Assembly (NCBI RefSeq): GCF_024700885.2 | Contig: NZ_CP117016.1 | DNA: 64,000 nt | Strand: one strand, 5' to 3' | Source: Escherichia coli | Lineage (GTDB): Bacteria > Pseudomonadota > Gammaproteobacteria > Enterobacterales > Enterobacteriaceae | Shown here: positions 8,557 through 13,413 of the stretch, piece after piece | Layout of the letters: every line of letters starts with the position of its first letter | Numbering within the stretch: position 1 is the stretch's first letter | Program-made: the position numbers and the translations under genes | Notes under the pieces: generated by a model | The model's database searches: none | The model's input: only the letters and a program-made list of their open reading frames with translations | Told to the model about the DNA's origin: nothing

Positions 8557-10134
8557 TCATTCCCACTCAATGGTAGCTGGCGGCTTGCCGCTGATGTCAT
8601 ACACCACGCGGGAAATACCGTTCACTTCATTGATAATGCGGTTGGAAACGCGACCGAGGAAATCGTACGGCAGATGCGCCCAGTGTGCGGTCATAAAGTC
8701 GATGGTTTCGACAGCACGCAGAGAAACAACCCAGTCATACTTACGACCATCGCCCATTACACCAACGGAACGTACCGGCAGGAAGACGGTGAACGCCTGG
8801 CTGACTTTGTCGTACAGGTCCGCTTTACGCAGTTCTTCAATAAAGATGGCGTCAGCACGGCGCAGCAGGTCGCAGTACTCTTTCTTCACTTCGCCCAGTA
8901 CACGAACGCCGAGGCCTGGTCCCGGGAACGGGTGACGGTACAGCATGTCGTACGGCAGGCCCAGCTCCAGACCAATCTTACGCACTTCGTCTTTGAACAG
9001 CTCTTTCAGCGGTTCAACCAGCCCCATCTTCATCTCTTTCGGCAGGCCGCCCACGTTGTGGTGAGATTTGATGACGTGTGCTTTACCGGTTGCAGACGCC
9101 GCAGATTCGATAACGTCAGGGTAGATAGTACCCTGCGCCAGCCACTTCACGTCTTCCAGTTTCAGCGCTTCTTCATCGAATACTTCAACGAAAACGCGCC
9201 CGATGATTTTACGTTTTGCTTCCGGATCGTTTTCGCCGGCCAACGCTGACAGGAAGCGATCTTCTGCCGGAACGTGAACAATGTTCAGACCAAAGTGATC
9301 GCCAAACATATCCAGAACCTGCTCTGCTTCGTTGAGACGCAGCAGGCCGTTGTCGACGAATACGCAAGTCAGGTTTTTACCGATAGCGCGGTGCAGCAGC
9401 ATTGCGGTTACGGAGGAATCCACACCACCAGAGAGGCCGAGGATGACTTTATCGTCGCCTACCTGCTCGCGGATGCGAGCTACAGCATCGTCGATAATTT
9501 TCGCTGGCGTCCACAGGGCTTCACACTGGCAGATATCTCGCACAAAGCGCTCCAGCATGCGCATACCCTGGCGGGTGTGAGTCACTTCCGGGTGGAACTG
9601 TACGCCATAGAAGCGTTTTTCTTCGTTAGCCATAATGGCAAACGGGCAGCTTTCGGTGCTGGCTACGGTGACGAAGTCGGACGGGATAGCGGTAACTTTA
9701 TCGCCGTGGCTCATCCAGACATCGAGCAGAGGTTTACCGTCTGCGGTCAGAGCATCTTCAATACCGCGAACCAGTGCGCTGTCGTTTACGACTTCAACCT
9801 GCGCGTAGCCAAATTCACGTTCGTTAGAGGCTTCAACGTGACCGCCCAACTGCATTGCCATGGTCTGCATGCCATAGCAAACGCCGAATACCGGTACGCC
9901 TGCTTCAAAAACATACTGCGGCGCACGCGGGCTGTTTTCTTCGGTGGTGCTTTCCGGGCCGCCGGAAAGAATAATGCCGCTTGGGTTGAAGTCACGAATT
10001 TGTGCTTCTGTCACATCCCACGCCCACAGTTCGCAGTAAACGCCCAGCTCACGCACGCGGCGCGCAACCAGTTGAGTATACTGGGAACCGAAGTCCAGAA
10101 TGAGGATGCGATGCTTATGAATGTTTTCCGTCAT
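8557..10134 (-). CDS. guaA: GMP synthase (glutamine-hydrolysing)
   Basis: 525 aa; C-terminus ...PPATIEWE; GATase and ATP-PPase motifs (SGGVDSS). Confidence 0.97.
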
Positions 10135-10202: not shown

Positions 10203-11669
10203 TCAGGAGCCCAGACGGTAGTTCGGGGACTCTTTAGTAATGGTCACGTCGTGAACGTGGCTTTCCTGAATGCCCGCACCGCTGATACGTACAAACTCCG
10301 CTTTAGTACGCAGTTCGTCGATAGTACCACAGCCGGTCAGGCCCATACAGGAGCGCAGGCCGCCCATCTGCTGGTGAATGATCTCTTTCAGGCGACCTTT
10401 ATAAGCTACGCGACCTTCGATACCTTCCGGCACCAGTTTGTCGGCAGCGTTATCGCTCTGGAAATAACGGTCAGAAGAACCTTTGGACATCGCGCCCAGG
10501 GAACCCATACCACGGTAAGATTTGTAAGAACGGCCCTGGTAGAGTTCAATTTCTCCCGGAGATTCTTCAGTACCTGCCAGCATGGAACCCACCATTACCG
10601 CGCTTGCGCCAGCGGCGATAGCTTTGGCGATATCGCCTGAGAAACGGATACCACCGTCAGCGATAACCGGAATACCGGTGCCTTCCAGGGCTTCTACTGC
10701 ATCAGCAACGGCGGTGATCTGCGGAACACCTACGCCAGTCACGATACGAGTCGTACAGATAGAGCCAGGGCCGATACCGACTTTAACCGCGCTGCAACCA
10801 GCTTCTGCCAGAGCGCGTGCCCCCGCAGCTGTTGCCACGTTGCCGCCGATGATTTGCAGATCCGGATATTTAGCACGAGTTTCACGGATACGCTGCAGAA
10901 CGCCTTCAGAGTGACCGTGAGAGGAGTCGATCAGCAGAACGTCAACGCCTGCGGCAACCAGCGCATCAACACGTTCTTCGTTACCCGCACCTGCGCCAAC
11001 CGCTGCACCAACACGCAGACGACCTTGTTCGTCTTTACAGGCGTTCGGTTTACGTTCTGCTTTCTGGAAATCTTTCACGGTGATCATGCCGATCAGGTGG
11101 AATTCGTCATCAACCACCAGCGCCTTTTCAACGCGTTTTTCGTGCATTTTTGCCAGCACCACTTCACGGGCTTCGCCTTCACGCACGGTGACCAGACGCT
11201 CTTTCGGCGTCATGTAAACGCTAACCGGTTGATTCAGATCGGTCACAAAACGCACGTCACGACCGGTGATGATGCCGACCAGTTCGTTTTCTTCGGTAAC
11301 GACCGGGTAACCCGCAAAGCCGTTACGTTCAGTCAGTTCTTTCACTTCGCGCAGCGTCGTGGTTGGCAAAACAGTCTGCGGGTCAGTTACCACGCCAGAT
11401 TCGTGTTTTTTCACACGGCGAACTTCTTCTGCCTGGCGTTCAATGGACATGTTTTTGTGGATAAAGCCGATACCGCCTTCCTGAGCCAGAGCAATAGCCA
11501 GGCGCGCTTCCGTTACGGTATCCATTGCTGCGGAAAGCATAGGGATATTCAGACGAATAGTTTTCGTCAGCTGGGTGCTGAGGTCAGCAGTATTCGGCAG
11601 AACGGTAGAATGAGCAGGAACGAGGAGAACGTCGTCAAACGTCAGAGCTTCTTTAGCGATACGTAGCAT
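10203..11669 (-). CDS. guaB: IMP dehydrogenase
   Basis: Start set to [16 protein letters not shown] (track ORF extends 23 codons upstream); CBS and IMPDH catalytic motifs. Confidence 0.96.
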
Positions 11670-11721
11670 GGGCAATATCTCGACCAGAGTGGTTAATAAA
11701 TATTGCCGCGGCATTATACAG

Positions 11722-11738
11722 AGCGTAACCGATTGCAT
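11722..11738. promoter_or_regulatory. PurR-box-like dyad in guaB promoter region
   Basis: AGCGTAACCGATTGCAT resembles the PurR operator consensus from memory; in guaB/xseA divergent intergenic region. Confidence 0.3.
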
Positions 11739-11800
11739 CTACCCCTTTTTGCAAAAAATGCTTGCTATCCCCGGAGGGCGGGTTACTATCGACTGAATAA

Positions 11801-13413
<1,613 letters not shown>

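Follow-up and report, generated by a model that had tools for sequence, protein, structure and literature searches.

A probable weak PurR operator in the core promoter of the Escherichia coli guaBA operon

A 16-bp box located at positions 11723-11738 (minus strand) of the window, the whole 64,000-nt stretch of E. coli DNA analysed here, is very probably a weak PurR operator of the guaBA promoter (PguaB), repressing by promoter occlusion. Its assignment as the PUR box of PguaB is based on identity with a published motif, on its rank as the best matrix match in the window and on its conservation in Enterobacterales. That the sequence is identical to the published site was observed directly, as were the geometry of the promoter and the PurR-like pattern of conservation; in vivo occupancy and purR-dependent repression are taken from the literature, and occlusion would be steric. 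The guaB PurR operator is already known, both from published work and from regulon compilations.

Genomic setting and identity of the box

The 17-mer at window positions 11722-11738, read from the sequence as AGCGTAACCGATTGCAT, is the same as that reported in the original prediction, where it was described as a PurR-box-like dyad in the guaB/xseA divergent promoter region. The core of the box, 16 bp on the minus strand (11723-11738), reads GCGTAACCGATTGCAT, and the published motif does not include the A at 11722; the 17-base element thus contains the published site, extended by one additional 5' base. The window belongs to an E. coli chromosome: the 501 bp around the box match many E. coli chromosomes with 100% identity, and 5425 of the 5426 complete genomes of the species contain them; an identical copy of the 76-bp core promoter of guaB is carried by 5391 of 5423 genomes of E. 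coli. According to the RefSeq annotation of an E. coli region with 100% identity and the list of open reading frames, the guaB CDS (IMP dehydrogenase, 488 codons) occupies 10203..11669 on the minus strand and starts with the ATG at 11669. The RefSeq annotation and the list of open reading frames also give guaA (GMP synthase, 8557-10134), which constitutes the rest of the regulated operon, and the divergent neighbour xseA (exonuclease VII large subunit, 11831..13201, plus strand), starting with the ATG at 11831. The box is situated inside the 161-bp gap between guaB and xseA; control of xseA by it is not expected. The mechanical list of open reading frames starts guaB at an in-frame ATG at 11738, within the box (511 amino acids, 10203-11738). 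This start was rejected as an ORF-calling artefact in favour of the annotated one at 11669, because the ATG, at -32, lies upstream of the guaB transcription start.

The same 16 bases constitute the motif assigned to the guaB-guaA region in a PurR ChIP-chip study (Cho et al., 2011; PMC3159470 Table 1), where they are placed at MG1655 2,632,146-2,632,161, within a 440-bp region (2,632,091-2,632,533); the identity with window positions 11723-11738 extends over 16 of 16 bases. The published guaB motif maps to the flagged bases and not elsewhere, and the predicted location of a PurR box in the divergent guaBA control region is thereby borne out. In that study the guaB-guaA region was bound only when exogenous adenine was supplied, with a log2 enrichment of 0.84, the lowest of the 35 regions (PMC3159470). 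Husnain and Thomas (2008; PMC2885671) likewise noted that a putative PurR site overlaps the core promoter of PguaB, and they cite Meng et al. (1990) and Davies and Drabble (1996) for the lowering of guaB expression by PurR. A 2024 review mentions PUR boxes upstream of guaBA, and a 2025 paper on UPEC names Fis, DnaA, PurR and CRP as regulators of PguaB. The literature consulted terms the guaB PurR site "putative", and no in vitro PurR footprint on the guaB operator was found in it, the primary papers of Meng (1990) and He (1990) lying outside its coverage.

The description of the element as a dyad holds in part: it is a near-palindrome around a central CpG at positions 8-9 (GCGTAAC-CG-ATTGCAT), but an imperfect one, with four of the eight pairs read from the sequence (3/14, 5/12, 6/11 and the central C8-G9) being self-complementary. 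Each half-site fits the half-site consensus at about six of eight positions, and several accepted PurR sites are equally asymmetric. The departures of the guaB operator from the consensus fall at the symmetry-related positions 2, 7, 10, and 16. The central CpG step is the site of hinge-helix intercalation in PurR-DNA crystal structures, and among the 59 Enterobacterales orthologs described below C8 is kept in 52 and G9 in 54.

Matrix scores and chance expectation

A PurR weight matrix was built from the 27 ChIP-supported motifs other than guaBA listed in PMC3159470 Table 1 (leave-one-out). With this matrix the guaB box scored 14.85 bits, the top match on either strand of the 64 kb, the runner-up reaching 10.54 bits. 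When each ChIP-supported PurR site was scored leave-one-out, the box ranked 22nd of 28 (range 7.4-25.2 bits); its score, falling within the ChIP-supported range, is not a poor one. A symmetrised PurR matrix gave 12.9 bits, above six accepted sites. The guaB box is thus recognised as a PUR box by a matrix derived from independent sites (PurR motif ACGNAAACGTTTGCNT). The glyA PurR box had been expected as a positive control; no second strong match was present in the 64-kb window, which therefore evidently ends before the glyA box.

Taken as proof in itself, the score was rejected, since matches of this quality are at chance level across the window. Matches scoring at least as high as the box are expected 0.41 times per 64 kb with an iid background and 0.94 times with dinucleotide shuffles, and 179 of 300 dinucleotide shuffles of the window attained the box score. 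Likewise, the relaxed consensus ANGCAANCGNTTNCNT with at most one mismatch had a single match in the window, the guaB box itself, vs 1.9 expected. Within the guaB-xseA intergenic region, an a priori target, the chance expectation scaled from the 64-kb figures drops to about 0.001-0.002, and the box is the sole position there scoring above zero on the PurR matrix. The case for the box is consequently carried by location, conservation and published binding data, not by score. As a separate observation, PurR-matrix matches of at least 10 bits numbered three in the real window vs a mean of 8.5 in dinucleotide shuffles, possibly reflecting a depletion of near-sites in coding sequence.

Comparison with established operators of the regulon is in line with a weak site. 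The PUR boxes of purB (AGGTAACCGATTGCGT), glyA, purF, and purMN have in common with the guaB box a 16-bp near-palindrome, a central CpG and the core GNAANCGNTTNC, and the purB operator is a near-exact match to the right-hand 13 bases of the guaB box (GTAACCGATTGC..). The guaB box is, however, weaker than those of the pur genes (14.85 vs typically 19-22 bits), carrying G instead of A at position 1 and CA instead of CG at positions 14-15 (orientation of Cho et al.). Its last place in ChIP enrichment and its adenine-only binding also set it apart from the pur operators.

Architecture of the guaB promoter

The geometry of PguaB was fixed from the published numbering and not from a generic sigma-70 scan, which missed PguaB owing to a -35 hexamer that agrees with the consensus at only three of six positions, and returned a plus-strand candidate instead. 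A putative CRP site is placed at -117.5 of PguaB in PMC2885671, which cites Hutchings and Drabble (2000) for it. The sole CRP-like core, TTTGA-N6-TCACA at 11816-11831, has its centre at 11823.5, and this fits -117.5 only if +1 in the literature numbering is the G at 11706 (minus strand), which was therefore adopted as the probable transcription start; the last base of the putative CRP core is the A of the xseA ATG, an overlap of one base. With +1 at 11706, the published PguaB fragments, which end at +36, terminate 2 nt before the guaB ATG. The -10 hexamer, TATAAT, occupies 11713..11718 (minus strand) and hardly varies among 59 Enterobacterales loci, where its mean column information is 1.92 bits. 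The probable -35 hexamer, TAGATG (11736..11741, minus strand; 3/6 vs TTGACA), was positioned by spacing, with a 17-bp spacer, and its columns are kept as T(A/G)GA.. in the same 59 loci. Further upstream, the A/T-rich UP element region GCAAGCATTTTTTGCAAAAAGG covers -59 to -38 (11744..11765, minus strand), as deduced from the sequence and from published deletions ending at -59 and -37, on either side of the element (PMC2885671).

In this numbering the PurR box spans -32 to -17, that is, the 3' half of the -35 hexamer, whose last three bases fall within the box, and most of the spacer. It thus overlaps the core promoter of guaBA, an operon of purine nucleotide metabolism. Such a position is not peculiar to guaB, as the motif was located between the -35 and -10 elements in 14 of 32 PurR-regulated promoter regions (Cho et al.; PMC3159470). 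The guaB box resembles operators of the pur regulon both in lying between these elements and in its reported corepressor-dependent occupancy (adenine to hypoxanthine), but differs from them in being set in a growth-rate-controlled, UP-element-driven promoter.

On the opposite strand, a promoter-like pair, TCGACT-16-TAGAAT (11789-11816, plus strand), ends 15 nt before the xseA ATG and is a candidate promoter for xseA, whose leader would then be very short.

A further side observation concerns the guaB leader, in which GCAAUAUU at +1..+8 (11699-11706) is predicted to pair with GAUAUUGC at +28..+35 (11672-11679), both on the minus strand. The second arm lies just before the guaB AUG, and the predicted 5'-terminal hairpin (-10.5 kcal/mol, z = -2.4) encloses the Shine-Dalgarno region. 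Among 43 distinct Enterobacterales leaders the arms are almost invariant, with a between-arm length of 18 to 32 nt. The innermost two pairs of the stem alone vary, each in two of the 43 leaders and with pairing kept (U-A to U-G, U-G to U-A); the arms hardly vary, and no compensatory change was detected in these 43 leaders. The arms persist where the PurR box has been lost and in reduced symbionts. An Rfam scan of 11500-11950 gave no match, and a literature search found no paper on a guaB leader hairpin. Published FIS sites 2 and 3, at +8 and +29 of guaB, coincide with the two arms, so that their conservation may possibly also be read at the DNA level, through FIS binding.

Conservation of the box in Enterobacterales and beyond

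One genome per species was scanned with the first 150 residues of GuaB, yielding 80 guaB loci, of which 59 belong to Enterobacterales and the remainder to Aeromonas, Vibrionaceae, Pasteurellaceae and further taxa. The top-scoring match to the matrix within 300 bp upstream occupied the orthologous position, 66-81 nt ahead of the guaB ATG, in about 50 of these 59 loci, with scores of 12-20 bits. Across the 59 loci, G3, C4, A5, A6, C8, G9, T11, T12, and C14 of the box are nearly invariant, and substitutions concentrate at positions 2, 7, 10, 13, and 16, where the PurR motif carries little information. Conservation per column correlated with the information content of the motif (Spearman 0.75, p = 8e-4, a generous p value, as the species are related; Pearson 0.80). 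A degenerate box was found in Erwinia endophytica and in two symbionts. In two loci each of Rahnella, Budvicia, and Rosenbergiella, the -35 and -10 elements, the discriminator and the leader are kept, while the spacer is unrelated; since these lineages have replaced it, the spacer sequence is not needed for promoter function as such. In Rosenbergiella, an 11-bit PurR-like match was observed instead at -224 of guaB.

Outside Enterobacterales, strong PurR-type boxes were detected upstream of guaB in seven loci of Vibrionaceae, and another such strong box in one member of Pasteurellaceae, Rodentibacter. They score about 13-18.5 bits and are located at non-orthologous distances of -80 to -168. The matrix scan revealed no PurR-type box upstream of guaB in the six Aeromonas loci.

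These data bear on the possibility that the resemblance to PurR sites is due to chance and that the box is conserved solely because it forms the spacer in a promoter that is strong and tightly tuned. Besides the window-wide match frequencies given above, this explanation draws on the high conservation of the whole promoter, in which the flanking elements show no less conservation than the box. It is nonetheless hardly credible in view of the very low intergenic expectation, the confinement of ortholog variation to positions that are degenerate in PurR sites, the retention of the rest of the promoter in the lineages with a replaced spacer, the independent PurR boxes upstream of guaB in Vibrionaceae and Pasteurellaceae, and the published ChIP-chip peak covering the site. 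A PurR operator proper remains the preferred interpretation of the conserved bases.

Relationship to GalR operators

Operators of GalR and GalS (GTGNAANCGNTTNCAC) have the LacI-family architecture that is common to the guaB box, and the 16-mer of guaB (b2508), ATGCAATCGGTTACGC, appears among sequence-predicted GalR sites (Qian et al., 2016; PMC5110547 Table 4). This raises the question of whether the box serves GalR/GalS or another LacI-family regulator, which would tie guaBA to a non-purine signal. With symmetrised 14-bp matrices the E. coli box obtained 11.4 bits for GalR vs 12.4 for PurR, each value in the low tail of the true sites of that repressor, and its left half starts with ATG, as GalR sites do. 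In the clade of Escherichia, Citrobacter, and Enterobacter, position 2 of the box has changed from the widespread G (AGGCAA..) to T (ATGCAA..), making the left half GalR-like and the PurR and GalR matrix scores nearly equal. Most orthologs, by contrast, carry the PurR-like AGG at the left end and not ATG. In all 50 of the 50 box-bearing orthologs the PurR score exceeded the GalR score, with means of 13.9 vs 9.4 bits. Furthermore, 11.4 bits falls in the bottom tail of GalR sites (leave-one-out 9-20 bits), and GalR sites end in CAC, which the right end of the guaB box lacks. Finally, guaB is absent from the 15 GalR ChIP-chip regions (PMC5110547 Table 3), whereas PurR ChIP-chip detects it. PurR and GalR can barely be separated in E. 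coli by sequence alone, but PurR is favoured by the orthologs as well as by the ChIP data. GalR binding as the main function of the box was rejected on the matrices and orthologs, and an operator of GalR/GalS or of another family member in place of a PurR site is highly improbable. Equally improbable is the possibility, raised by the near-equal matrix scores, that the E. coli operator could be a dual PurR/GalR (or GalS) site, to which GalR might bind weakly or under particular conditions; if it were, it would couple GMP synthesis to sugar status.

Discussion

The box at 11723-11738 is thus best understood as a weak PurR operator of guaBA. According to the mechanism proposed here, PurR, a LacI-family dimer with hypoxanthine or guanine as corepressor, would bind in its corepressor-bearing form to the imperfect 16-bp palindrome around the central CpG. 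Bound PurR and RNA polymerase would then be rivals for the -35 region and the spacer, and steric occlusion would lower guaBA transcription when purines are plentiful. Both occupancy and repression would be modest, because the operator departs from the consensus at positions 2, 7, 10, and 16. This effect would be layered on those of the UP element, of control by growth rate and the stringent response, and of FIS, DnaA, and CRP.

The multiplicity of inputs invites the view that PurR binds the box but to negligible effect, purine control of guaBA running chiefly through other pathways, for example guanine-nucleotide-specific control, ppGpp and growth rate, DnaA, FIS, or CRP. The ChIP enrichment, lowest of the 35 regions and obtained with adenine only, the weak matrix score and the many other documented inputs to the promoter are all compatible with it. 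A purR-dependent downregulation of guaB has, however, been reported (as cited in PMC2885671), and the PurR-specific constraints under which Enterobacterales have retained the box speak for selection on binding. An inconsequential site is accordingly unlikely, and modest repression by PurR remains the better account of the box.

The site could not have been established from the matrix score alone, and the original prediction, made with low confidence, proved exact. For E. coli, the importance of the box beyond correct annotation is small; as a PurR operator it would explain the purine-responsive part of guaBA regulation. Across Enterobacterales, the pattern of conservation indicates that a weak guaB operator has been maintained with PurR-type constraints.
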